Shown: positions 3,979 to 16,257, numbered from the stretch's first letter. The stretch: 32,085 bases of DNA from an uncultured Litorilinea sp. (GCA_964649925.1 CAZYQJ010000001.1:499-32583), one strand, 5' to 3'. The notes: a model not told the origin generated them from the sequence alone. Translations and numbers: made by a program.

Positions 3979-4848
3979 TCAGCAGCCCGTCAAAAAGCGC
4001 GCGCCCTGCAAGATCCCTAGCTTCTCCGCATCAGGATCACGATGGAAATTGGAATCCTCCAGTTCGATTGACACCGCGCCCGCATAGCCAAACTCAACCA
4101 GCAGCCGCAAGATCTCAACCCAGCGTGCTATGCCATGACCTGGGATCGTGTAGCGCCACGTCATGCCCGAGAACGGCTGCGGCTTGGCGAACGTCGCCGG
4201 TTGCTCAGTGCCATACTCGTACAGGTTTTCCTCCAGGATCATCGTATCCTTGCCATGCACATGATAGACCCGCTCACCAAACTCACGCAGAAAACGCAGG
4301 GGGTCAATCCGCATGCGGATCAGGTGCGACGGGTCATAGTTGATCCCCATCGCAGGCGAAGCCACCTGCTCGAAGAAAGCGCGATAGCCTTCCGGCGTGC
4401 AGCAGAGCGCCCCGGGACCTGGCCAGCCCTCGATTACCAGTTTGGCATTGGCTTCCTCCAGCGTCGGTGCCAGTTCGCCAAAGCTCTCGACCATATAGCC
4501 AAAATTCTCCGCCCGCGGCAGTGCCGGGTCTTCGGGCAGCATCACCAGGAAGTGATTGACCGGCCCCAATGCGGCGCAGGCGCGGATATACTCGGCGTTG
4601 CGCGCCAGGGCTTCGGCGCGCCGCCCGCGGTCCGCTGCAATCATGCCCTTGTTGTCGGGCATGTCCACGCTGCCAATGCGCAGCCCCGCATCCACGACCG
4701 CCCGCCCGGTGACATCGCCATCGGTGCGCAGATCGATCACCTCCAGTTCATTCTCCTTCGCCCAGTTCACCAGGGCATTGAGGTCTTGTTGCCACTCCCC
4801 ACCCCCGCGCCGAAAACCGATGGGGAAACCGCCGGTTCGAGTCTTCAC
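3979..4848 (-). CDS. Sugar phosphate isomerase/epimerase, xylose isomerase-like TIM barrel
   Basis: 289 aa; GTG start with AAGGA 8 nt upstream. Pattern typical of the AP-endonuclease-2/xylose-isomerase-like barrel (..NFGYMVESFG.., ..YHVHGKD.., ..AVSIELED..). Confidence 0.7.
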   Translation of the reverse strand: MKTRTGGFPIGFRRGGGEWQQDLNALVNWAKENELEVIDLRTDGDVTGRAVVDAGLRIGSVDMPDNKGMIAADRGRRAEALARNAEYIRACAALGPVNHFLVMLPEDPALPRAENFGYMVESFGELAPTLEEANAKLVIEGWPGPGALCCTPEGYRAFFEQVASPAMGINYDPSHLIRMRIDPLRFLREFGERVYHVHGKDTMILEENLYEYGTEQPATFAKPQPFSGMTWRYTIPGHGIARWVEILRLLVEFGYAGAVSIELEDSNFHRDPDAEKLGILQGARFLTGC

Positions 4849-4893
4849 AGTCGCAATCCTTTGCTATGGTTGTAGTTCTATGCTTGTGGTGTC

Positions 4894-6459
4894 CTATGGC
4901 TCAATGGCTGGCTGTTCGGCGACGATCTCGCCAACAACCTGTCCCTGCCACTCAGGTGGAATGGGAATCCCCAGCAAGTGTAAGATCGTGGGCGCAACGT
5001 CCGTGATGTGCACAGGCTGTTGAATGATATGGTTCGCGCGCACCCCGGTTCCCCACACAATCCAGGGAATGGTCATGTCCTCGGCTTGCGCTGTGCCATG
5101 ACCGTGGTCATGCCCGCCGTGATCGGCCATGACGATACAGATAGTATCCTCCAGTTCGCCTGCGGCGTCCAGCGACGCGATCACCCTCCCGATGATTGCA
5201 TCGGACTGGGCAACCGCTTGCAGATAGGCGGACGACATCCAGCCGTAGCGATGGCCTGCGGCGTCGGTAGCTTCCAGATAGACAAAGGCAAATGTAGGCC
5301 GCTGGCGCGCGATCTCGCGTGCGGCCACGCCTCCGAGCTCCTCAGCATTGCTGGGTGAAAAACGCCGGTAGACGCTGAGATCGAGCGTGCCGGGCGGAGC
5401 CATATCGCGCAGTTGTTCCCAGGAATAAAAAGCCGCTGTGTCATATCCGCTGTCGTTGATCACCTCGATCAAACTCGGCAGCGGCGGGTCCAGCGGCGTC
5501 CAATCGTTGGTCATGATGCCGTGCTGTTCGGGATGGGCCGAGTAGAAAAGCGACGTATGGCAAGGCAGCGTGATCGAGGGCATGACCGTGCGCGCCTGAC
5601 CTGTCCATGATCCCTGGCGGCGCAGCCGGTCCATCACCGGCGCGTCGGCTGCCTCCAGCGCATCCGGGCGGCAGCCGTCCAGCATAAAGAGGATCACCCG
5701 CTTTGCCACGGGCGGCAGCGACGGGGCCTCCGCCTGCGCTGTCTCGGCGGCATACTCCGCCATCACCTGCAAGAACACATCCCCATGATCCAGGTTGATC
5801 AGGTCGGCCCCCCAGCGCAGCACTTGGCGAAAGGCCGCGGGGTCGTTCTCCGGATGATAGACCATGATCCGCAGGCCGCGCCTCCGGCATTCGTCCACCA
5901 GTGCCGCCGACATATCCTTCAGCCGCACTTCGACCAGGTTCGCCTGGTATTCCTCATCGGCGCGAATGACGTCGGCCACACTCTCCACGTTGATCTTCAA
6001 CGCCAACCTGCTGTCCAGACGCCGGAACTCGCGTGCGTCCGCATCATTGCCAAACCAGAAGAAACAGGCGTCCTGCATCTCCAACGTATGGATGAGGGCG
6101 ATCAACTCCGGCAGATTGGCCGCCTTCACATCTAGAAACACCTTCGCCTGCCCCTTGATCCAGCGCAAGAACGGCTCCAGCCGCGGCACGCGCTCCTGGG
6201 CAAAGTCGGGATGAAACCAGCTTCCGGCGTCCAGCGCGTCGATCTCGCCCGAAGTCAAGTCGCAGAAATTGCCGCGGCCATTCGTCGTCTGTTCCACCGA
6301 AGGCCCGTGCAAGAGGTAATGCACCCCATCACGGCTGAGATTGACATCGACCTCCACATAGTCAACGCCCCACGCGATACACTGCCGCGCTGCCGCATAG
6401 GTATTTTCCGGAGCAACCTTGTTTGCGCCTTTGTGACAGACGATCTCAATTCGACTCAT
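4894..6459 (-). CDS. Fusion protein: GDPD domain + nucleotide pyrophosphatase/phosphodiesterase (NPP, alkaline-phosphatase superfamily) domain
   Basis: 521 aa. N-terminus has GDPD motifs (VCHKGANKVAPENTYAA..YVEVDVNLSRDGVHYLLHG). The C-terminal half has NPP motifs (ILFMLDGCRPD; nucleophile region MPSITLPCHTSLF; metal site MADHGGHDHGHG). The start overlaps the upstream HAD stop as ATGA (6456-6459). Confidence 0.8.
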   Translation of the reverse strand: MSRIEIVCHKGANKVAPENTYAAARQCIAWGVDYVEVDVNLSRDGVHYLLHGPSVEQTTNGRGNFCDLTSGEIDALDAGSWFHPDFAQERVPRLEPFLRWIKGQAKVFLDVKAANLPELIALIHTLEMQDACFFWFGNDADAREFRRLDSRLALKINVESVADVIRADEEYQANLVEVRLKDMSAALVDECRRRGLRIMVYHPENDPAAFRQVLRWGADLINLDHGDVFLQVMAEYAAETAQAEAPSLPPVAKRVILFMLDGCRPDALEAADAPVMDRLRRQGSWTGQARTVMPSITLPCHTSLFYSAHPEQHGIMTNDWTPLDPPLPSLIEVINDSGYDTAAFYSWEQLRDMAPPGTLDLSVYRRFSPSNAEELGGVAAREIARQRPTFAFVYLEATDAAGHRYGWMSSAYLQAVAQSDAIIGRVIASLDAAGELEDTICIVMADHGGHDHGHGTAQAEDMTIPWIVWGTGVRANHIIQQPVHITDVAPTILHLLGIPIPPEWQGQVVGEIVAEQPAIEP

Positions 6460-7004
6460 ATGCGCGCCTGTTCTATTCCTTGTTCAATCATTGGGATAAC
6501 TGACAGAAGTTCCAGCGGCGTTTTGATCCGATAATCAGGCCGCTCCAAGCTGGAGATAGGCACTTTGCGGCGGCGTGGCGACCAGTCGATCCACACGCTG
6601 ACCATGCCCAACGCGTTCGCGCCTGCCACATCACGTTCCAGGTTGTTCCCCACCATGATCGTCCGCCCATAGTCCTGTGGCGCGATGCCCAGCGCATCCA
6701 GCGCATAGCAAAAGATGGCAGGGTCTGGCTTTTCCACGCCCAGCGCGCCGGAGATGGCACGGACGGCAAACCGTTCAAACAGACCGAAATGACCCAACAC
6801 GTTGCGGAAGGTGCCCACTGGGCCATCCGCCACCAACGCCAGCGGGTAGCCTTCAGCCTGCAGCGCGCACACAAGTTCCGCCGCACCGGGGATCAACTCG
6901 GCCACCTGAGTCTCGCCCGCGCTGTTTTTCACCTCCGTCGCCTCATCGACCAACGTATCGCCACTGTCCAGACAGATCGCCAGCAGCCGTCCCCTGGGTT
7001 GCAT
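6456..7004 (-). CDS. HAD-superfamily hydrolase
   Basis: 182 aa with the Rossmannoid HAD pattern (LLAICLDSGDTLVDE; ..LALVADGP..; ..MVGNNLERDVAGANALG). Motif I reads DSGDT, so the Asp+2 position is Gly by my alignment. Confidence 0.75.
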   Translation of the reverse strand: MQPRGRLLAICLDSGDTLVDEATEVKNSAGETQVAELIPGAAELVCALQAEGYPLALVADGPVGTFRNVLGHFGLFERFAVRAISGALGVEKPDPAIFCYALDALGIAPQDYGRTIMVGNNLERDVAGANALGMVSVWIDWSPRRRKVPISSLERPDYRIKTPLELLSVIPMIEQGIEQARI

Positions 7005-7015
7005 AGATGTGCGTC

Positions 7016-8368
7016 CTATCGTAGTGCTGCCGGGCCATCCGGCAGGGGCAGCAGGTCGTCCACGCGTATCAACTTGTTCGTCGCCATAGCGTGGTTGGCC
7101 GCGATCCCCATCATGATCGACGCTGCGCCGTCAATGTGTGAGGCAGCGCGCGCATACGGGTCTGCGGGTGGATTGGGGGAAAGGATCTGCTCCAACATCA
7201 CCGCATCGCCGCCACCATGCCCCCCCTTCGCTTCAGGGATCTCGACCGAGTAGGGTTTGCCAAACATGGGGAAGACGCGGATATACTTACCGCCGAACGC
7301 AGCTTCCGCCTCTTCATCACGGCGCAGCGTTTCCTCTTCCCCAGCTACAAACTGCTTGCCAACCTGCTCTACCAGTTCAATCTCCAGCCGCCCCTTGTCC
7401 CCCGTGATGGCGACCCGGTAGCCTTCCCACGGGCTGTAGGCGATCAGCGAATAGGTGAGCAGCGTGCCGTTGCGATAGCGCGCTGTCAGGCTCATCGTAT
7501 CCTCGACCGTCACATTCTGCCCAAACACGTTGCGGTCGCGCACATACCCGCTGTCTGCCTCAGCCTCCAGATAGAGGGCGCGCAGCACTGGATGCTTGTC
7601 CAAAAAGAGCGCAAACGGATCGTTCGCTGCCTCGGCATGGCCTGTATAGCGCGCGTAGCTGTAGCTTTCACCACGCCGCGCCGCGTTCTCCTCCCCATAA
7701 AAGAACAGATCCCCCATCGCAAAGACCTCTGCTGGATAGGATTGGATCCACCAGTTGATCAAGTCGAAATGGTGCGTTGCCTTGTGCACCAACAGCCCGC
7801 CTGACTTGTCCTTCTCGCGATGCCAGCGGCGGAAATAGTCGGCCCCGTGGTACGTGTCCAGCACCCACTGGAAATTGACGTGCAGCGGCCTGCCCACCAC
7901 CCCCTGCATCAATAACTCACGCACCTTAGTGCTTAACGGTGCATAGCGATAATTGAAGGTCACGCGCAATGATCGGCCCGTCCGCTCAATGGCATCAAAA
8001 ATCGCGCGCGCCTTCTCGTCGTCGATGGTCATCGGCTTTTCGGTGATGGCATCGCACCCCAGTTCCATGGCGCGGATGATGTAGTGGTGGTGGGTGACGT
8101 CCATCGAAGTCACAATCACTACATCTGGGCGGGTCTGTTCCACCATCTGGTCAAACTGGTCAGGGCGATACGTAGGCAGCGGCTCACGCCCGTATTCCTC
8201 GCGCAGTTGGGTGTTGTACCAGGCCATGCGCGTGGGGCTGAGGTCACACAACGCCACCAGTTCATTGTGTTCCGCATACGTTCCGGCAATGGCGTCAACA
8301 TACATCTTCGCACGCCCCCCTGTGCCGACAATCGCATAGCGGCGCTTTCGATCCTCACTATCCATCAT
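7016..8368 (-). CDS. Gfo/Idh/MocA-family NAD(P)-dependent oxidoreductase
   Basis: The ORF track starts at 8428. I prefer ATG 8368 or 8365 (GGGAAGGA just upstream), giving about 450 aa. N-terminal Rossmann motif [14 protein letters not shown], then the typical ..CDAITEKP.. and dimerisation domain. Confidence 0.8.
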
Positions 8369-8409
8369 CCAATCCTTCCCTGTTGGTTGCTTGGTGTGTA
8401 TGGGGAATC

Positions 8410-8430
8410 CAATGGGAACAATCCCCATTG
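8410..8430. promoter_or_regulatory. Perfect inverted repeat CAATGGG-N7-CCCATTG in the divergent control region (candidate operator or 5'-UTR hairpin)
   Basis: Read directly from the sequence: caatggg (8410-8416), aacaatc, cccattg (8424-8430). It lies about 40 nt upstream of the preferred oxidoreductase start. Confidence 0.35.
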
Positions 8431-8496
8431 CATTGGGTAATTTTCCTCACGCTTGCAGCTACACCCTAGGGTAAATCCTCATGGCGCTCCGTTCAA

Positions 8497-8507
8497 AATG
8501 GGAACAA
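8497..8507. promoter_or_regulatory. Second copy of the 11-bp motif AATGGGAACAA (first copy at 8411-8421)
   Basis: Exact 11-mer direct repeat 86 bp apart inside a ~245-bp intergenic region. The first copy overlaps one arm of the inverted repeat. Confidence 0.3.
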
Positions 8508-8613
8508 AGATGGGTCTTCAGCCCGGTGTCGCGGCTCACCATCCATGATATTGTCAACTTAGCACTAACTAGAACCATTGCGTTCTTTAGAGGTACTTAT
8601 AGAGGAGGATACC

Positions 8614-8742
8614 ATGTCACTTACTGAAGTTGGACTCGTCGCGGGCATGCTGATTGCTGTCGGCGTTGTTCGCTTTGGCATCCCGGCGGCCCTCACCTGG
8701 GCCTGCTGCCGGGTGTTACACCGCATCAATCCCGCAGGCTAG
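8614..8742 (+). CDS. 42-aa single-pass membrane protein (not in the ORF track), first gene of the cytochrome module
   Basis: ATG 8614 is preceded by AGAGGAGGA with 4-5 nt spacing; stop TAG at 8740-8742. Translation: MSLTEVGLVAGMLIAVGVVRFGIPAALTWACCRVLHRINPAG. It shares the signature VVRFG(I/V)P..LHR(I/L) with the N-terminus of the ORF at 11795. Confidence 0.6.
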   Translation: MSLTEVGLVAGMLIAVGVVRFGIPAALTWACCRVLHRINPAG

Positions 8743-8780
8743 GCTCACCCCTAGCCTTGTCCCATTCTGGAGATATTCTT

Positions 8781-9644
8781 ATGGTTGCGAACCATGTGCG
8801 CCTTGCACCCTGGGCCGGTCGCATCGCGGCGCTGCTCATCGCCGTCTGCCTCACTGGCTGGAGTTCATCGACCCTGTACGCCCAATCTGCCGCCCCTGCC
8901 CCGTCGGACGCAGTCACTTCCGAGGCGGTCCCTGCAGAGGGTGATGATGTATGCGTCTCCTGCCATGCCGACGAAAGCGCGGCGTGGGAAGCATCGCCCC
9001 ACGGTGACGGAGAAGGCGGCGGCGCATCGTGCGTAGCCTGCCACGGCGAGTATGTTAAAGGCCACCCGGCAGAAGGGCCAATGTCTCTCAAAGTGGACTC
9101 TTCCTCCTGCGAAGGCTGCCATGCCAAAACCTTCGACCAATGGAGCGAGAGCCATCACGCCGCCGAGGGCGTCCAGTGCATTAGCTGTCACAAGCCCCAC
9201 TCCCAGGAATTGCGGCTCACCGACGAGACGCTTTGCGAGAGTTGCCATCGCGAATCTGTCGAGGATCCCTTCCATACGGCCCACTGGGAAGGCGATGTGA
9301 CGTGTACCTCATGCCATCTATCCGACGCCCCGCACACGGGAGCCGTCGCCAGCGGTGATGCAGCGATTGGGTTAGCCATGGCGCCCACTCACGATTTCAC
9401 CACGGTCTCGTCTGCGAAGTGCCTTGACTGCCACCGCGAGGCGGTGACACAGACCACAACAGAGCCAACCACGGTCGCCGCGAGCCTACCCTTGACGACC
9501 ACCGACGCCGCATCATCAGAGCCAACGCCGCTCGCTACGGCCACGCTGTCGGCAGCGAATCTTGGCTTTGGCTTGGGCATCGGCGGCATCCTGGGCATCG
9601 TCTTTATGTTGATCGCCGCCACCTACGGTTTTGGGAAGAAGTAA
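8781..9644 (+). CDS. Heptaheme c-type cytochrome, secreted and C-terminally membrane-anchored
   Basis: Seven CxxCH motifs: CVSCH, CVACH, CEGCH, CISCH, CESCH, CTSCH, CLDCH. N-terminal signal-like segment (RIAALLIAVCLTGWSSSTLYA). Thr/Ser/Pro-rich linker, then a hydrophobic tail LGFGLGIGGILGIVFMLIAATYGFGKK. I prefer ATG 8781 (GGAGA 7 nt upstream) over the TTG at 8757. Confidence 0.9.
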   Translation: MVANHVRLAPWAGRIAALLIAVCLTGWSSSTLYAQSAAPAPSDAVTSEAVPAEGDDVCVSCHADESAAWEASPHGDGEGGGASCVACHGEYVKGHPAEGPMSLKVDSSSCEGCHAKTFDQWSESHHAAEGVQCISCHKPHSQELRLTDETLCESCHRESVEDPFHTAHWEGDVTCTSCHLSDAPHTGAVASGDAAIGLAMAPTHDFTTVSSAKCLDCHREAVTQTTTEPTTVAASLPLTTTDAASSEPTPLATATLSAANLGFGLGIGGILGIVFMLIAATYGFGKK

Positions 9645-9646
9645 TC

Positions 9647-10573
9647 ATGACTGCACCCGATACCTCCCGACGCACATTTTTGAAAGGCCTGGGAGCCGGT
9701 GCGCTGAGTCTGGTCGCCGTCAGCAGCCAGCTCACCCCGGCCCACGCCAGCAGCACCGTCAATACAGATGACGCCTATGGCGTGTTGATCGATCTCACCC
9801 GCTGCACCGGCTGTGATTCCTGCGTGCTGGCCTGTAAGCAGAAGAACAACCGGCCCAACCCAGACACGAGTGCCGACCGTCTCTCTAGCGATGCCTACTC
9901 TGCGCTGGAACGCTACCCGATCATCAACGCCGACGGCGCGCTGGCGGAGCAAGCAGTCAAACGCCAGTGTATGCACTGCCTCCATCCGGCCTGTGTATCC
10001 GCCTGTACCGTGGGTGCGCTGCGCAAACAGCCTAATGGCCCTGTTGTCTACGAAGCGGACAAATGTATCGGCTGTCGCTACTGCCAGTATGCATGCCCTT
10101 TCGGCGTGCCCACCTATGACTGGAACAATGCCCTCGGCCTGATCCACAAGTGTAACCTATGCGCCGACCGCCTGGCAGAAGGCGAACTGCCCGCCTGCGT
10201 AGCTTCATGCCCCAACGGTGCGCTGCGCTTCGGCAAACGCTCAGCCCTGCTGGCTCAGGCCCACGCCCAGATCAAGACCAATCCGGGCCGCTATGTCGAC
10301 CACGTCTACGGCGAAACCGAAGCGGGCGGCACATCTATGCTCTATCTCTCGGCGGTACCCTTCGCACAGCTTGGCTTCCCGGTGCTGGGCAGCAAACCCA
10401 TCCCGCAAGATGCCGAGCGGATCATGGAAAGCACGCCGATCATCGCCTTGGGGATGGCTACGCTTGCCACCTCGCTCTATTTCATCACCCGTCGCCATCG
10501 CGAATTGGCCGCCGAAAACGCCGCGGCTCAGCCCGCAGATCCAGGCGACGCGCACTCGCACCAGTCTGATTGA
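9647..10573 (+). CDS. Tat-exported four-cluster iron-sulfur subunit (NrfC/HybA/PsrB-like) with C-terminal TM helix
   Basis: Twin-arginine signal SRRTFLKGLGAGAL. Four Cys clusters: CTGCDSCVLAC, CMHCLHPACVSAC, CIGCRYCQYACP, CNLC..CVASCP. C-terminal helix IIALGMATLATSLYFI. Starts 2 nt after the cytochrome stop. Confidence 0.9.
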   Translation: MTAPDTSRRTFLKGLGAGALSLVAVSSQLTPAHASSTVNTDDAYGVLIDLTRCTGCDSCVLACKQKNNRPNPDTSADRLSSDAYSALERYPIINADGALAEQAVKRQCMHCLHPACVSACTVGALRKQPNGPVVYEADKCIGCRYCQYACPFGVPTYDWNNALGLIHKCNLCADRLAEGELPACVASCPNGALRFGKRSALLAQAHAQIKTNPGRYVDHVYGETEAGGTSMLYLSAVPFAQLGFPVLGSKPIPQDAERIMESTPIIALGMATLATSLYFITRRHRELAAENAAAQPADPGDAHSHQSD

Positions 10574-10582
10574 GAGGTACGC

Positions 10583-11737
10583 ATGGCTACCCAAGTTACC
10601 TACCGCCGTCCGACGACTTGGCAGTTCCCGATCCCGCCTCTATCCTGGGCTACGTTGGGCATCCTCGGCTTCCTGACCGTCATGGGGATCTTCGCCGGGG
10701 TCGCCCGTCTGCTGGCCGGGCTGGGGATGACCACATCGCTCACCGATCAAATCCCTTGGGGCATCTGGATCGGCTTTGACTTTACGCTCATCGCCCTCTC
10801 CGGTGCAGGCTTCACCATGGCTGCAGTCGGTCATGTCCTGCACCTGCACCGGCTGGAGGCGGCTGTACGCCCGGCCCTATTCGCAGGCTTCTTGGGCTAC
10901 ACAGCCGTCCTTCTGATCCTTGTGCTTGACCTGGGGCGTCCCGACCGCTTCTATCACTTCATCTTGTACTGGAACCTGCACTCGCCCCTGTTCGAAATCT
11001 GCTGGTGCGTGTTGCTTTATACCACAGTGCTAGTGCTTGAAGTCAGCCCGGACCTCTTGCGTTGGCTAGGCTGGGAACGGCTGCGCCGCATCTCGCAAGC
11101 GATCATGCCGGTTGTCTGCATCCTGGGCATCACGCTCTCCACGCTGCACCAGTCCACCCTGGGCACGCTGTACGTCAACATGCCGCACCGGCTCCATCCG
11201 CTGCTGTACACCCCGTTCATGCCCGTGCTGTTCTTCACCACCTCCGTGATGGCAGGCCTAAGCGTCGCCATACTCGCCTACCGGATTTCTGTCCGCATCC
11301 AAAACAAGAATGAAGACCTGGGTGTTGCTTCGGGGCTTGGCGTTGGGATAGCTGGCGTGTCGCTGATCTACCTCCTGATCAAAGGCGGTCTGCTCTGGTG
11401 GGAAGGCAAATTGCCGCTGCTGTTGGTAAATGACGCCGTTACACGCGCCTGGTGGGTCGAAATCACCGTGGGCGCAATGATTCCGCTCATTCTGCTTGCC
11501 ATTCCGAAGTTGCGCCGCCACAACCTCACCTTGTGGGTCGCGCCACTCTTGGTCATTATCGGCGTTGGCATGAATCGCTTCAACGCCACGCTGCAGGGCC
11601 AAACCCCGCCCTGGACGGAGAGTTGGAGCTACACGCCGCACATCCTCGAATGGCTTTCGACCATCGGCATCATCGCAGGGGCCGCCCTTGTCTGGTATCT
11701 TGCCATGCGTTTTCTTGTGCGCCCTGACGAGCATTAG
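10583..11737 (+). CDS. NrfD/PsrC/HybB-family polytopic membrane subunit (quinone-interacting)
   Basis: 384 aa with about 8-10 hydrophobic helices. Family-typical segment DQIPWGIWIGFDFTLIALSGAGF. Located 9 nt after the FeS gene. Confidence 0.85.
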   Translation: MATQVTYRRPTTWQFPIPPLSWATLGILGFLTVMGIFAGVARLLAGLGMTTSLTDQIPWGIWIGFDFTLIALSGAGFTMAAVGHVLHLHRLEAAVRPALFAGFLGYTAVLLILVLDLGRPDRFYHFILYWNLHSPLFEICWCVLLYTTVLVLEVSPDLLRWLGWERLRRISQAIMPVVCILGITLSTLHQSTLGTLYVNMPHRLHPLLYTPFMPVLFFTTSVMAGLSVAILAYRISVRIQNKNEDLGVASGLGVGIAGVSLIYLLIKGGLLWWEGKLPLLLVNDAVTRAWWVEITVGAMIPLILLAIPKLRRHNLTLWVAPLLVIIGVGMNRFNATLQGQTPPWTESWSYTPHILEWLSTIGIIAGAALVWYLAMRFLVRPDEH

Positions 11738-11794
11738 TGACCGCCGATCACACTGCTGGCGCACAACACCTGACCCGGCTTGGAGGTCGTACCG

Positions 11795-12181
11795 ATGCCT
11801 AGCCCACAGGTCCTGGAAATCCTTGCCCTCGTCGGCATCTTTGTGGTTCGCTTCGGTGTCCCCTTGCTCCTGAGTGCAGCCGTTGTCTGGTGGCTTCACC
11901 GCCTCGACACACGATGGAGCAAGACCACTCCAGCGGTTACAGCGATTCCGGATGATGCACCCGTCGAGGCAAGTGCGGACTACGCCCAGATTATCAGCGA
12001 ACCTTGCTGGGTCTACCGTGCCTGCCCCGAAGAGCGTCGTAATCAGTGCCCGGCCTATCTCCATCCGGAGGTTGTCTGTTGGCTGGCACGGCTGCGCTGC
12101 GATGGCCGGTTGACAAGCAACTGCCGCTGCTGCTCCGTGTTTGCCACCAGCCATGTCAACACGACCGCGGCTGCCGACTGA
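11795..12181 (+). CDS. 128-aa protein: N-terminal TM helix + C-terminal 8-Cys domain, unknown family
   Basis: ATG 11795 with GGAGG 8 nt upstream (ORF track starts at TTG 11780). Sequence MPSPQVLEILALVGIFVVRFGVPLLLSAAVVWWLHRLDTRW..., then CWVYRACPEERRNQCPAYLHPEVVCWLARLRCDGRLTSNCRCCSVF. Basic residues after the helix suggest the Cys domain is cytoplasmic. Confidence 0.65.
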   Translation: MPSPQVLEILALVGIFVVRFGVPLLLSAAVVWWLHRLDTRWSKTTPAVTAIPDDAPVEASADYAQIISEPCWVYRACPEERRNQCPAYLHPEVVCWLARLRCDGRLTSNCRCCSVFATSHVNTTAAAD

Positions 12182-12186
12182 CCGGC

Positions 12187-12840
12187 TTACCCGTTGAGCA
12201 GCCCGCGCTCAATGGCGTAGCGCACAAGCTCAGCCCGGCTGTGCAGATTCAGCTTCGCCATAATATTTTCCCGATGCCGGTCCACCGTCTTGGGACTAAT
12301 GACCAGCCGTTGTGCAATATCACGGCTGGTCAAGCCTTCTGCGGTCAAAGTCAACACCTCGCGCTCGCGTGCGGAAAGCACATCCTCCTGGCGCGTCGCA
12401 TGGCCGTCGCGCTGCAAAACATCATGCATCAGAAAACGTGCTAATGTCGCGTGCAGAAAGACATTGCCCTGATGGACCACGCGAATCGCGGCCACTAGGT
12501 CGTCTGGTGCAGCCCGCTTGGGGATATAGCCCGAAGCGCCTGCGTCGAGCATTTCAAAGAAATACTGCTCGTCTTCATGCATGGTCAGCGCCAACACCGC
12601 GACGTTTGGGTCGAGTTCCTTGATCTTGCGCGTTGCCTCGATCCCGCTCATGCCCGGCATCGCCACGTCCATGATCACCACGTCCGGGTGGAGCGTCCGC
12701 ACCGCCTCCAACGCCTCCGCGCCGCTCCCAGCCTCCGCGACGATCTCCATATCCGGTTCTGCGGCAAAGAGCATCCGCAGCCCGGCACGCACAATCTGAT
12801 GGTCATCCACCAGCAGCAGGCGGATTTGTTCGCTTGCCAC
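12187..12840 (-). CDS. NarL/LuxR-family two-component response regulator
   Basis: 217 aa. Receiver domain (LLLVDDHQ..DVVIMDVAMPGMSG) plus LuxR-type HTH (LSAREREVLTLTAEGLTSRDIAQRLVISPKTVDRHRENIMAKL). The GTG start at 12840 overlaps the kinase 3' end by 38 nt. Confidence 0.9.
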   Translation of the reverse strand: MASEQIRLLLVDDHQIVRAGLRMLFAAEPDMEIVAEAGSGAEALEAVRTLHPDVVIMDVAMPGMSGIEATRKIKELDPNVAVLALTMHEDEQYFFEMLDAGASGYIPKRAAPDDLVAAIRVVHQGNVFLHATLARFLMHDVLQRDGHATRQEDVLSAREREVLTLTAEGLTSRDIAQRLVISPKTVDRHRENIMAKLNLHSRAELVRYAIERGLLNG

Positions 12841-14467
12841 CGTTTGCCTCCTTTATCCCTCGCGTGCTGGTCAGGATCGGCTGGGCCATGCTGGGACGCA
12901 CAGGCATCCGCACCGTGACATGCGTGCCCCGTCCCGGTTCCGAGCGAATCTGTGACTCGCCACCCAACAACTGGGTACGCTCCCGAATGCCGAGCAACCC
13001 CCAGCCGCCGCCGCGGCCATCCATCACCGCCCCCGCATCAAACCCCACACCGTCATCTGATATATAGATCACCAACTCTTCAGGCGCAATATCCAGACCG
13101 ATCTCAACATTGCGTGCGTCGGCGTGCTTGGCAATATTCGTCAAAGCCTCCTGGACAATGCGGAAGAGTAGCGTTTCATATTCGGGCAATAGCCGGGACA
13201 TCTCGCCCTGCACCTCAAAACGCACCGCGATCTCAGGATGGCGATCCTGAAAGGCGCGAATATACCAGCGCAGTGCCGGAACCAGCCCCAACTCGTCCAG
13301 TTGCGGCGGGCGTAAGTCCTCGATTATGCGACGTAATTCCATCATGGCGTCGTTGGCAAACGTTTGAATCGCATCCAATTGCACAGAGTGGGGCAGCCCC
13401 TGCTCTGCCAGCGCATTTTCCAGCCCACGCAGCCCCAGCCCAATCGCACTTAACGATTGCCCAGTCGCGTCATGTAAATCCCGCGCGATCCGCTGCCGCT
13501 CCGATTCCTGTGCATCGACCACCTGGTAGAGCAGTTCAGCCAACATGCGTTCACGCGTCTGCGCCTCTCGATAGAGCCGCGCGTTCTCGATAGACAACCC
13601 CATTTGTTGGGCGATCCCAGCCAGCAATCGCAGGTCAGCCAATGACAACGGCTGGGTCTCACCCTCCACCCGCGCCAGCACAACCACCCCAACCAGATCC
13701 TGCCGGGCGATGAGCGGGAGCGCAATCGCCACCGTTGGGCTGGCATGTTGCCAACACTCGCGGCCAACCAGCACCGCGTCTAGCTCAAATTCCAGTACCG
13801 CACCGTCCGCATGGCGGCAGAGCGCCCGGCCTTTGCGAAGCGCCCCCAGCCCCAGTTCCCAGTTTGGTCCATAGCGTTCGCCGGGAAGCGCCGCCCCCTG
13901 CAAAGGGAAACCGGTCGCCGCGCCCACCATCGGCGTCGAATCCATCGCCGTCCCCAGCAGCACCAACCCGGCGTCGGCAAACGCCAGGTTCTGCACCACC
14001 TGCCGCAACGCCTGGTCCAAACGACTCGATAGCTCCACCGGCGCAGCCAGCAGATTTGAGAGATCGAGCAGCAGCGCCAGTTCGCGCGCCCGCGCATGTA
14101 GCTCCTGATTCAACCGTTCTGTCTCCTGCAGGCTGCGCCTCTCCACTGCCAGGGCACGTTCCTGGGCCGCCAGTTGTGTCTGCACCGCTTCGTCTAGACG
14201 ACGCTGATTCTCCACGCCAAACGCCTGCAGCGCCCGCACCATAAAAAAGGCCAGCACCGCAGCCATAGTCCCTCGAAACAGTTGCACCGGAATACCAAAC
14301 CATGCCAAAAAGAGCTCACTGTTAATCACCCCGCTCGGCGGGATAGGAGAGGGCTGCACGAAGGCCTGCCCGACTGCCCCATAGAAGAAGAGCGCCGTCG
14401 CCGACCAGACCAGATCGCGGCCAAACTGCGGCATATCCACCTGTCGGTATGTTCGCTGCTGTACCAT
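12803..14467 (-). CDS. Sensor histidine kinase (TM segments, coiled coil, GAF, HisKA_3, HATPase_c)
   Basis: H-box ESERQRIARDLHDATGQSL, ATPase motifs (TNIAKHA..DDGVGFD..GGWGLLGIRER), and a GAF-like middle region. The start is uncertain: TTG 14485 (ORF track), ATG 14467 or ATG 14434. Confidence 0.85.
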   Translation of the reverse strand: MVQQRTYRQVDMPQFGRDLVWSATALFFYGAVGQAFVQPSPIPPSGVINSELFLAWFGIPVQLFRGTMAAVLAFFMVRALQAFGVENQRRLDEAVQTQLAAQERALAVERRSLQETERLNQELHARARELALLLDLSNLLAAPVELSSRLDQALRQVVQNLAFADAGLVLLGTAMDSTPMVGAATGFPLQGAALPGERYGPNWELGLGALRKGRALCRHADGAVLEFELDAVLVGRECWQHASPTVAIALPLIARQDLVGVVVLARVEGETQPLSLADLRLLAGIAQQMGLSIENARLYREAQTRERMLAELLYQVVDAQESERQRIARDLHDATGQSLSAIGLGLRGLENALAEQGLPHSVQLDAIQTFANDAMMELRRIIEDLRPPQLDELGLVPALRWYIRAFQDRHPEIAVRFEVQGEMSRLLPEYETLLFRIVQEALTNIAKHADARNVEIGLDIAPEELVIYISDDGVGFDAGAVMDGRGGGWGLLGIRERTQLLGGESQIRSEPGRGTHVTVRMPVRPSMAQPILTSTRGIKEANGGKRTNPPAAGG

Positions 14468-14509
14468 CAGAGCCCAGCAGCCCAATATCGCCGCCGGGAT
14501 GCCCTACAC

Positions 14510-14968
14510 TTACCGCGCCAACACATCCGCACTCGCAATCGCATCAGGGGCTGCAAACCCATAACGCATCCCGACCGCGGCGCACAAACCGATCCATGCC
14601 AGCAGCCCGCCCGCCACCACCGTGAGGATAAGCCACCGGCGCAGTTTCGACTGGACAAGCAACAGCATGGCGAAGTGCAGGAGCATGGCGAATGACGCGG
14701 CCAGCACCGCCAGGCGCACCCACTCCTCCGCGGCAGGCGGCAACCCTCCCCCGGTTCGCAGCCGAATCTGTTGAAACATCTCGATCCACTCGTGCGCGGC
14801 GTGCAGCAGCCCAAAGGCACTCATCGGACGGATGGCCTGGACAAAGCGAAAGCCCGAGACTTGACGGCTTGCCAGGGCAAGCGCCACCCCCAGCGAAAAA
14901 AAGGTCAAGCCGTATAGAAAATAAACGTTATGCAGATTGTCCACCCAGTATTGTGCCACCGGGTTCAC
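14510..14968 (-). CDS. Polytopic membrane protein (about 4 TM), possibly the detached N-terminal sensor module of the downstream kinase
   Basis: 152 aa and hydrophobic (VYFLYGLTFFSLGVALALA; WVRLAVLAASFAMLLHFAMLLLV; WLILTVVAGGLLAWIGLCAAVGM). Same reading frame as the kinase ORF, separated from it only by TAA-GTG-TAG at 14512-14504. Confidence 0.6.
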   Translation of the reverse strand: MNPVAQYWVDNLHNVYFLYGLTFFSLGVALALASRQVSGFRFVQAIRPMSAFGLLHAAHEWIEMFQQIRLRTGGGLPPAAEEWVRLAVLAASFAMLLHFAMLLLVQSKLRRWLILTVVAGGLLAWIGLCAAVGMRYGFAAPDAIASADVLAR

Positions 14969-14988: not shown

Positions 14989-16257
14989 CTAGCCGTGCAA
15001 GGGCTTATCGGGCCTGCCAATGAGGTGATCGGTCTCCCGTTCACGCACGCCTATCAAGAACAACAGCCCATCCAGCCCCAAGTTCGAAATCGCCCGGCCA
15101 GCCTTCTCGCGCACAATGGGCTTGGCATGAAACGCCACCCCCATCCCCGCAATCGTCAGCATCGGAATGTCGTTTGCGCCATCCCCCACAGCAATCGTCT
15201 GCTCCAACGACAGATTCTCCAGCCTGGCGATCTGGCGCAGCAGTTCAGCCTTGCGCTCGCCATCCACAATCTCACCCAACAGCCGCCCCGTCAAGCGGCC
15301 ATCCACGATCTCCAGACGGTTGGCGAACATATAGTCAAAGCCCAGCCGTTCCTGCAGCACGCGGCCAAAAAAGTCAAACCCGCCCGACAGGATGCCGAGT
15401 TTGTAGCCCAACCGCTTGAGCGTCCGCACCACGCGTTCGGCCCCTTCCATCAGGGGCAACCTTTGCGCCACCTCAGCCAGCACCGATTCCTCCAGCCCAG
15501 CGAGCAGTGCCACGCGGCGCGTCAAACTCTGCTTAAAGTCTAGCTCACCCCGCATCGCCGCCGCCGTAATCGCAGCCACCTCGTCACCCACCCCCGCGAT
15601 GCGCGCCAGTTCGTCGATCACCTCCACCTGGATCAGCGTCGAATCCATGTCGAACACCACCAAGCGCCGGTTGCGCCGGTAAATGTCGTCCAGATGAAAC
15701 GAGATGTCGATCTCCATCCCCTGGGCAAGTTCCATCAACTGTCGGCGCATTCCCTGCTCGTCGGCCAGGAAGCCGCTGACCGAAAACTGCACGCACGCCC
15801 TCGGCAGCACATCAGGGCGCGTCAGCGAGGTGCGACCCGATAGGCGCGTGATCACATCGATGTTCAGCCCATTCTCGGCGCAGACCGCGGTCACCGCCGC
15901 AATCTGCCCGGCGTGCAGCCGCCGTCCCATGACCGTAATGATGCGCCGTTCCTTGCCCTGCTCATCCACCCAGCGCTCATATTGATCCAGCGGCACAGGC
16001 GTGGCGCGTACCTGGACATCCAGTTCATGCGCCGCAAACAGCAGATTTTTCATCGCTTCGGCCCAAACCGCCGGTTCCGGCGCAGCCACCAGCACCCCCA
16101 GTGCCAGGTAGTCATGGATGACCGCCTGCCCGATATCCAACACACGCACATCAAAGTCGGCCAGCGCGCTCATCAACCGCGCGCTCAACCCTGGCCGGTC
16201 GCGCCCAGTCACATTGAGCAGAAAAACGTCCTCATGCCCCATCGTTTGGTCTGCCAC
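14989..16257 (-). CDS. serB: Phosphoserine phosphatase with N-terminal ACT domains
   Basis: 422 aa. ACT-like N-terminus (FLLNVTGRDRPGLSARLMSALADF). HAD SerB motifs (VVFDMDSTLIQVEVIDELA; ..LSGGF..; ..AVGDGANDIPML). A GTG start abuts the AKR stop; an alternative ATG lies at 16242. Confidence 0.85.
   Translation of the reverse strand: MADQTMGHEDVFLLNVTGRDRPGLSARLMSALADFDVRVLDIGQAVIHDYLALGVLVAAPEPAVWAEAMKNLLFAAHELDVQVRATPVPLDQYERWVDEQGKERRIITVMGRRLHAGQIAAVTAVCAENGLNIDVITRLSGRTSLTRPDVLPRACVQFSVSGFLADEQGMRRQLMELAQGMEIDISFHLDDIYRRNRRLVVFDMDSTLIQVEVIDELARIAGVGDEVAAITAAAMRGELDFKQSLTRRVALLAGLEESVLAEVAQRLPLMEGAERVVRTLKRLGYKLGILSGGFDFFGRVLQERLGFDYMFANRLEIVDGRLTGRLLGEIVDGERKAELLRQIARLENLSLEQTIAVGDGANDIPMLTIAGMGVAFHAKPIVREKAGRAISNLGLDGLLFLIGVRERETDHLIGRPDKPLHG

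Follow-up and report, generated by a model that had tools for sequence, protein, structure and literature searches.

Multihaem cytochrome/FeS/NrfD modules are the main devices that couple quinones to anaerobic respiration and to the transfer of electrons to external acceptors, and their sensing and regulation are poorly known, especially in the Chloroflexota, a phylum abundant in sediments, groundwater and wastewater. The window analyzed here, a stretch of 32,085 nucleotides from an uncultured Litorilinea sp. (GCA_964649925.1 CAZYQJ010000001.1:499-32583), carries such a module, a two-component system and two small open reading frames, one of 42 codons at the head of the respiratory operon and one of 128 codons at its end. 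The locus raises the question of what these two small proteins are, how they are related to one another, on which side of the membrane the cysteine-rich part of the longer one lies, and what connects them to the respiratory complex and to the sensor kinase. The features concerned are the following:

8614–8742, plus strand: 42-residue helix-only peptide with R20-x3-P24 and a basic C-terminal flank (GGAGG at 8604–8608; mostly third-position and synonymous changes relative to locus L001; peptide family)
8757–9644, plus strand: multihaem cytochrome c; seven CxxCH motifs, signal sequence at the N-terminus, membrane anchor at the C-terminus (Paired_CXXCH_1, Cytochrome_C7; MtrC/MtrF-like)
9647–10573, plus strand: Tat-exported four-cluster FeS subunit, HmcB/HybA-like, with a C-terminal membrane helix (Fer4_11; weak TAT_signal)
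10583–11737, plus strand: NrfD-type quinone-interacting membrane subunit, HmcC/HybB-like (PF03916 NrfD, E = 2.6e-25)
11795–12181, plus strand: 128-residue membrane-anchored six-cysteine protein, whole gene (GGAGG at 11782–11786)
11804–11926, plus strand: long helix of this protein, residues 4–44, with R19, P23 and juxtamembrane LHRLDTRW (AlphaFold, conservation, positive-inside statistics)
12002–12142, plus strand: Cys6 domain of this protein, residues 70–116, predicted cytoplasmic and weakly two-CW-like (conservation, spacing, pLDDT 92–95, NF045718)
12187–12840, minus strand: NarL/LuxR-type response regulator, convergent with the Cys gene, stop codons 5 nt apart (domain matches; conserved neighbour)
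12803–14968, minus strand: HisKA_3 kinase with a polytopic membrane domain of ~260 aa, GAF, HisKA_3 and HATPase (domain matches)

Two small genes that share a helix

The 128-codon ORF runs from the ATG at 11795 to the stop codon at 12179–12181, and GGAGG is located 8 nt 5′ of the start. The ATG is preferred to the TTG at 11780 as the start codon because all homologues begin with M-x-S-P-Q. A word-indexed protein search returned 12 close relatives of 57–90% identity, and an exhaustive phmmer search with the 128-residue protein against 1.84 billion cluster representatives returned 256 clusters (50% identity) at E ≤ 1e-3, nearly all of which are 100–170 aa in length and have the same architecture as the window protein. 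These relatives, together with the coordinates and the GGAGG, bear out the proposal of a first-pass annotation of the window that this ORF is a gene. The family members bearing database names, all of them named "hypothetical protein" and originating from Chloroflexi, Anaerolineae or Chloroflexota MAGs, have a precomputed Pfam domain in no case. An antisense ORF at 11258–12154 was considered as a gene and rejected; conservation tracks the plus-strand frame. A promoter and terminator scan of positions 8300–12400 gave background level only.

The 42-codon ORF is preceded at 5 nt by GGAGG in the window, and GGAGG or GGGGG occurs at this distance in the window and in a syntenic locus, L001, from a Caldilineaceae MAG. 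Between window and L001, 35 nt of this ORF differ, 22 of them at third codon positions, and the changed codons comprise 16 synonymous and 11 non-synonymous ones. Because both small ORFs are conserved and have Shine-Dalgarno sequences, and the 42-codon one shows coding-type substitutions relative to L001, they are taken to be real genes, and homologues of both are found in related loci. Searches of the 42-residue product against Pfam and NCBIfam gave chance-level matches only.

The first-pass annotation had also described the N-terminal helices of the two proteins as paralogous on the basis of an ungapped alignment having 13 identities. This number lies above anything obtained in 20,000 composition-preserving shuffles, which have a mean of 6.9 (sd 1.0) and a maximum of 12; the BLOSUM62 segment score of the two N-termini is 58 compared with 21 ± 4 for the shuffles, and BLASTP of the 42-residue against the 128-residue protein gives E = 2e-5, indicating that the likeness exceeds what shared hydrophobic composition would produce. 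A helix HMM built from the first 42 residues of the Cys family and used to scan related loci matches short ORFs of 35–51 aa; an arginine and, four residues on, a proline are kept in all 32 distinct helix peptides, and a G-E-W motif and an RR(R)E flank are present in most of them. Alignment of these 32 peptides with 50 Cys-protein N-termini by hhalign gives a probability of 96.8% and E = 2.6e-10, a value that is inflated because the peptides were found with a model of those same N-termini; the window-only tests (shuffles and BLASTP) and the constant gene position support paralogy independently of that selection. As judged from these comparisons, the 42-residue ORF is a truncated paralogue of the Cys-protein N-terminus, comprising the helix and juxtamembrane segment only, and the proposed paralogy is upheld.

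Helix ORFs are present in about 43 related loci and lie directly 5′ of the Cys gene in about 35 (in 31 the helix motif ends 10–100 nt before the Cys-protein helix, and there are 4 further adjacent cases), counts that are not an unbiased census, since all loci with adjacent helix ORFs were found via similarity to the Cys/helix family. In 8 loci, including the window, L001, L005/6, L028/29, L087 and the decayed L054, the helix ORF heads the cytochrome–FeS–NrfD operon. Independent gene callers have annotated helix ORFs of 39–42 aa in L083, L086 and L087, and the NCBI record from which L082 derives, the single annotated MAG record inspected, has no gene call at the helix ORF. Short hydrophobic ORFs are frequent in GC-rich DNA and the 42-residue ORF has no library family, so that the helix similarity could be put down to chance or the ORF dismissed as a non-gene. 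This explanation is already contradicted by the shuffles, by the mostly synonymous and third-position changes behind a strong Shine-Dalgarno sequence, by the ~43 loci with a helix ORF at a fixed position and by the invariance of R and P in the peptides, and its probability is negligible. As a pair, the helix-peptide gene and the Cys gene are conserved, and this pair is so far known from Chloroflexota only.

A six-cysteine domain of fixed spacing

The C-terminal part of the longer protein is a compact domain of about 48 residues having the pattern P-C-W-x4-C-x7-C-P-x8-C-W-x13-C-x2-C-x2-F. Among 95 diverse family members C71, C77, C85, C95, W96, C110 and C113 are invariant, R19, P23 and W72 occur in at least 90%, and 249 of 299 distinct domains share exactly the spacing C-x5-C-x7-C-x9-C-x14-C-x2-C. 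The window protein has the eight cysteines originally counted in it, of which six are invariant family-wide; because C102 and C112 are lineage-specific, the family is described as having six conserved cysteines and not eight.

The first-pass annotation could not assign the cysteine spacing to a known family, and this holds for all well-known ones: no Pfam, NCBIfam or PDB search gave a confident match to a well-known Cys-rich family. It holds less strictly in that one faint, sub-threshold relative exists, the NCBIfam two-CW domain. For the window protein and the 95 members, Pfam yields no family, with one chance-level match to Fer4_RLI (E = 0.089), and NCBIfam yields none beyond the weak two-CW signal. 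A PDB sequence-profile search with the Cys protein gave chance helix matches to rhodopsin only, Foldseek against the PDB returned nothing for the full model or for a domain-only model, and a word-indexed protein search with a 54-residue domain alignment returned nothing. A tblastn search with the Cys-domain consensus against plasmids gave chance matches only, with no real two-CW sequences among them, and no second copy of the domain occurs in the kinases or other ORFs of 81 loci. The WhiB-like (C-xn-C-x2-C-x5-C), CCG HdrD/DsrK-type (CxnCCGxmCxxC) and ferredoxin-type (CxxCxxCxxxCP) patterns agree with the domain neither in spacing nor by family model. The H-x3-C-x2-C motif of ZAS proteins is absent, there being no histidine four residues before the C-x2-C (...LTSNCRCC); moreover, in ZAS proteins the cytoplasmic domain precedes the membrane helix, whereas in the Cys protein the order is reversed with the helix first, and no Pfam or NCBIfam match links the two.

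The two-CW model, NF045718, is the sole or top match among 18,950 NCBIfam models for 14 of 16 Cys domains and consensus sequences, with E values of 0.007–4.4 and scores of 8–17 bits relative to a curated cut-off of 35 bits. All scores stay below that cut-off, with 8.2 bits (E = 3.1) for the window domain, 14 bits for the highest-scoring natural member and 16.7 bits for the consensus of the family, and just 1 of the 95 full-length proteins has E < 0.1. The likeness consists in the motif order CW, C, C, CW, C-x2-C, and some alignments extend over query residues 4–51 and profile positions 2–75 of 80, with much shorter loops in the Cys6 domain. Unlike the 80-residue profile, the Cys6 domain has ~48 residues and stands alone on a single membrane helix. 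It is plausible from this pattern that the Cys6 domain is a remote relative or shortened version of two-CW and not a member of that family; alternatively, the likeness could be a convergent Cys/Trp pattern. We take NF045718 to be typical of signalling proteins. The likeness brings no function with it, because the literature searched has no mention of the two-CW domain; conversely, a two-CW-like fold would here gain a first defined genetic context.

Predicted topology

The Cys protein is bitopic, with a short acidic or neutral N-terminus, a long helix, a basic juxtamembrane motif (RRLDxRW in the family consensus, LHRLDTRW in the window), a variable linker and the Cys6 domain. An AlphaFold2 model of the 128-residue protein, calculated with the 95-sequence alignment as input, has a mean pLDDT of 86.7 and shows one continuous helix over residues 4–44 (pLDDT 93–98 over residues 1–40), a linker of low confidence and a compact Cys domain of short helices (pLDDT 92–95). 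Lysines and arginines average 0.1 before the hydrophobic stretch and about 3 in the 12 residues after it across the Cys family, and the charge pattern of the helix-only peptides is the same (0.1 versus about 3). Because the flank charges reverse those of a signal peptide, the helix is predicted to be an N-out/C-in anchor and the Cys domain to be cytoplasmic; a signal peptide was rejected as an identity for the N-terminus on the same charge distribution. The cytoplasmic location put forward in the first-pass annotation is thus also the one predicted here, and the NrfD fusion described below is consistent with it.

If the N-terminus were a secretion signal or an N-in anchor, the Cys domain would lie outside, as a disulfide-rich domain beside the haems. 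Six cysteines could indeed make three disulfides, and the partner subunits are all extracytoplasmic. Nevertheless, the charge asymmetry of the flanks is the opposite of that of a signal peptide, the AlphaFold helix is unbroken over ~40 residues without a cleavage-type break, and both the NrfD fusion and the read-through in locus L077 fit only a cytoplasmic C-terminus, which makes an external Cys domain very improbable.

In L077 (224–1534) the Cys ORF runs in frame into the downstream multihaem cytochrome to give 436 aa, the TAA stop present in L079 and L069 being absent; this is a single case that could be an assembly error and, if real, has a topology that fits a cytoplasmic Cys domain.

A conserved module of respiratory and regulatory genes

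The FeS subunit of the window scores 276 bits with HmcB (equivalog cut-off 420) and 238 bits with HybA (263), and the NrfD subunit scores 220 bits with HmcC (550) and 207 bits with HybB (450), all four values being below the cut-offs; membership at the level of Pfam domains is found for Fer4_11 in the FeS subunit and for NrfD in the membrane subunit. The gene order of the window is identical to that of L001. Synteny extends into the flanks (6456–8428 and 14989–16257 in the window, 4022–5988 and 12659–13930 in L001), where the shared genes encode a HAD hydrolase, a Gfo/Idh/MocA oxidoreductase and a SerB-like phosphatase; by this synteny the window belongs to Caldilineae or close to them.

Gene context was compared in 80 metagenome loci, obtained by a scan with 12 closer sequences, and in 7 loci from exact-protein look-ups. 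The 80 metagenome loci display three gene orders combining the same genes: kinase–regulator–Cys–cytochrome convergent with helix–cytochrome–FeS–NrfD; kinase–regulator–helix–Cys–cytochrome–FeS–NrfD; and the window type, helix–cytochrome–FeS–NrfD–Cys convergent with regulator–kinase. An order without the cytochrome is helix–Cys–FeS–NrfD–kinase–regulator. The Cys stop codon is 4–40 nt from the next cytochrome gene, whose Shine-Dalgarno sequence is contained in the 3′-terminal part of the Cys gene; regulator and Cys genes are separated by 130–300 nt. Of the 15 loci having at least 4 kb on both sides, 13 have kinase and regulator within 7 kb and 11 have FeS and NrfD. Unlike the GAF domain, the membrane domain of the kinase, of ~260 aa, is conserved in all cluster types; Pfam has no family for this membrane domain, which is without large external loops or a known sensor domain. 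The module is thus composed of a polytopic kinase, a NarL-type regulator, an FeS–NrfD quinone module and usually a multihaem cytochrome c, plus the pair, and the two partners suggested in the first-pass annotation, respiratory complex and two-component system, are both conserved neighbours.

Several loci depart from this composition. L046 consists of kinase, regulator and Cys gene only, the rest of the module being absent nearby. In L088 (8001–11290) the Cys gene is directly 5′ of the kinase and regulator genes, amid genes for Rieske/cytochrome b and large MtrC-like multihaem cytochromes, with NrfD, FeS and helix ORF absent within 8 kb; the exact Cys protein of this locus is found on 24 contigs. 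L084 (9001–9390) is an orphan Cys paralogue among unrelated genes in MAG GCA_016208315.1, which also carries the full cluster L082. L054 (3502–4666) is a decayed cluster of helix ORF, NrfD fragments and Cys gene between unrelated flanking genes, with cytochrome, FeS, kinase and regulator absent. A second, shorter multihaem cytochrome directly follows the Cys gene in L005 (479–1270) and in many kinase–regulator–Cys–cytochrome loci, which also have the cytochrome of the convergent helix–cytochrome–FeS–NrfD operon; the window and L001 are without the second one. The literature searched for this cluster in Anaerolineae or Ardenticatena, and for MctS/MctR, contains nothing specific, and MctS/R was rejected as a relative, being an unrelated rhizobial system.

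A natural fusion of the helix to NrfD

In one lineage, represented by L082/L083 and L086, the NrfD subunit has an N-terminal extension of ~100 aa (coordinates 10325–11797 in L082, 1998–3470 in L083 and from 9335 onward in L086). The order is one extra helix, the family helix (...AVLAYMFFLRIGVPVILVVGIGAWLKRKLDPDEE...), a basic linker and the canonical first transmembrane helix of NrfD, so that the family helix is consistent with an N-out/C-in orientation only. The fusion argues that the R-x3-P helix type works next to NrfD. The fusion loci keep the free helix peptide and the Cys protein, and since three copies of the helix coexist in them, a model of helix–helix association is allowed as well. 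The fusion clusters are without a multihaem cytochrome gene, and L082/L083 have an ORF for a 64-residue soluble protein between the NrfD and kinase genes.

Proposed function of the pair and alternatives

The reading we favour, with a probability of roughly 0.45, is that the pair are helix-docked accessory subunits and that the Cys domain is a putative kinase-linked sensor in the cytoplasm, of the metal or Fe-S type. The shared helix would be a docking element, packed within the membrane on the NrfD subunit or on further copies of the same helix, and would keep the Cys6 domain on the cytoplasmic side of a complex that has all its redox centres outside. The six cysteines may bind a metal or Fe-S cofactor, and the domain would inform the adjacent kinase of the redox or metal state of the cytoplasm, or of the state of the complex; the kinase would in turn set operon expression through the regulator. 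The helix-only peptide would be a second small subunit that may fill an equivalent site or compete for the same one.

A cofactor-binding type of domain is supported by the six invariant cysteines, their rigid spacing, the confident compact model and two-CW as the only relative in the libraries. To our knowledge no electron path leads from NrfD-type modules to the cytoplasm, and a cytoplasmic redox domain would have no obvious partner within the complex. NrfD subunits are without a cofactor and the known redox centres of the complex face outward (PMC8076601). For these reasons an electron-transfer role of the cytoplasmic domain is unlikely, and a sensory or regulatory role is favoured. Against a sensor stands the observation that in most loci the Cys gene shares an operon with the structural genes and not with the kinase genes, which fits a structural or assembly role too, and against docking and sensing combined stand the orphan copy L084 and the limitation of the NrfD fusion to one lineage. 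The first-pass annotation had offered a choice between a redox module docked to the complex and a regulator communicating with the two-component system; gene context supports both, and sequence data cannot separate them.

One alternative gives the pair a role in the structure or assembly of the cytochrome–FeS–NrfD complex only, kinase and regulator merely controlling the operon and the pair having no signalling role. The Cys6 domain would then be a structural zinc knot or an aid to cofactor insertion or export of the partner subunits, and the pair would find its analogues in additional small subunits like NhcD or the single-helix ones of alternative complex III. The tight spacing to the helix and cytochrome genes, with a Shine-Dalgarno sequence within the 3′ end of the Cys gene, is what such subunits would lead one to expect, as are the fusion of the helix to NrfD, the helix ORF as first gene of the structural operon in the window, L001, L005/6, L028/29 and L087, and the precedent of NhcABCD, which has a fourth subunit, NhcD (PMC8076601). 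L046 and L088 are difficult to reconcile with it, however, because they keep the Cys gene with kinase and regulator while NrfD and FeS are absent within 4–10 kb, and so is the orphan L084. In the complexes known from this class the peripheral subunits face outward and nothing corresponds to a cytoplasmic domain, and neither small protein has a sequence relation to any known small subunit in Pfam or NCBIfam. We regard a solely structural pair as unlikely.

The same two loci, one with Cys–kinase–regulator (L088) and one with kinase–regulator–Cys (L046) and both without NrfD, would be expected if the Cys protein were an accessory co-sensor of the kinase alone. Its helix would dock on the polytopic kinase domain, as small membrane proteins do on intramembrane-sensing kinases, the Cys6 domain would be the redox or metal sensor, and the helix peptide would be a decoy competing for the same site. 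Kinase and regulator are the most persistent neighbours (13 of the 15 well-flanked loci), the kinase membrane domain lacking large external loops or a known sensor domain is part of every cluster type, and the one library model that the Cys domain resembles is named for multi-domain proteins. Yet the same helix is fused to NrfD and not to the kinase, the helix model gives no match to the kinase, and the regulator–Cys gaps measure 130–300 nt, in contrast to the tight coupling of Cys and cytochrome genes; a role confined to the kinase is quite unlikely. The context data support elements both of this explanation and of the structural one, without separating the two.

The favoured reading of docked subunits with a kinase-linked sensor can be extended. 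The R-x3-P helix occurs in three forms, as a free peptide, as the anchor of the Cys6 protein and fused to NrfD, and it might be a portable docking tag that makes a cytoplasmic metal or Fe-S sensor part of an outward-facing quinone–cytochrome complex wired to a dedicated kinase. This bolder proposal is at present doubtful. If it were true, the respiratory complex itself would be the sensory input of a two-component system, which has not been described for NrfD-type complexes.

Comparison with known systems

Small membrane proteins that modulate sensor kinases are known in the pairs MgrB–PhoQ and LiaF–LiaS, and NreB is an Fe-S oxygen sensor kinase. The Cys protein resembles MgrB and LiaF in concept, as a small bitopic protein encoded beside a kinase without an obvious external sensor domain, and the window kinase is of the HisKA_3/NarL class, like LiaS and NreB. 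No sequence relation is known, however, between the Cys protein and MgrB, LiaF or NreB. The functional cysteines of MgrB are periplasmic, whereas the Cys domain here is predicted to be cytoplasmic, and NreB carries its cluster in cis; unlike all three, the Cys protein is also tied to a respiratory complex.

On the respiratory side, the closest systems are NhcABCD, HmcABCDEF, HybA–HybB of Hyd-2 and alternative complex III. The window FeS and NrfD subunits score best with HmcB/HybA and HmcC/HybB, and a multihaem cytochrome is encoded next to them, as in this class, although all scores are below the equivalog cut-offs. Extra small membrane subunits, for example NhcD, are known in the class (PMC8076601). 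The small proteins of the window have no match to known NrfD-complex subunits of the HmcD/NhcD type in Pfam and NCBIfam, so that the analogy is one of position and size only, and no NrfD-type complex is described as having a Cys-rich cytoplasmic subunit that is tethered to the membrane and accompanied by a helix-only paralogue. The Chloroflexi are not named in a review's taxonomic list of NhcC and HybB carriers (PMC8076601).

Neither the respiratory module nor the type of two-component system is new in kind; the pair of helix peptide and Cys6 protein and the helix–NrfD fusion are not described in the libraries or literature searched. An unannotated, widespread pair of small proteins genetically locked to a quinone module and a specific sensor kinase is hereby defined, and the R-x3-P helix, the six-cysteine domain of fixed spacing and the natural helix–NrfD fusion offer experimental handles on it.

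Two further observations concern the window itself. The helix peptide has a Cys-Cys pair, C31-C32 (8704–8709), at the cytoplasmic end of the helix, which is conserved in window-type peptides (TWACCRVL in the window, TWTCCRVL in L001 at 6296–6424) at the place where other helix peptides have G-E-W. The kinase gene is interrupted by an in-frame TAA at 14512–14510 and a TAG at 14506–14504, three codons apart, where L001 reads Y-L-L; the orthologue in L001 is one intact ORF of 721 aa, to which both halves of the window gene are highly similar. The interrupted gene could be a recent pseudogene, a split kinase, for which a TTG at 14485 is a possible restart, or an assembly error.
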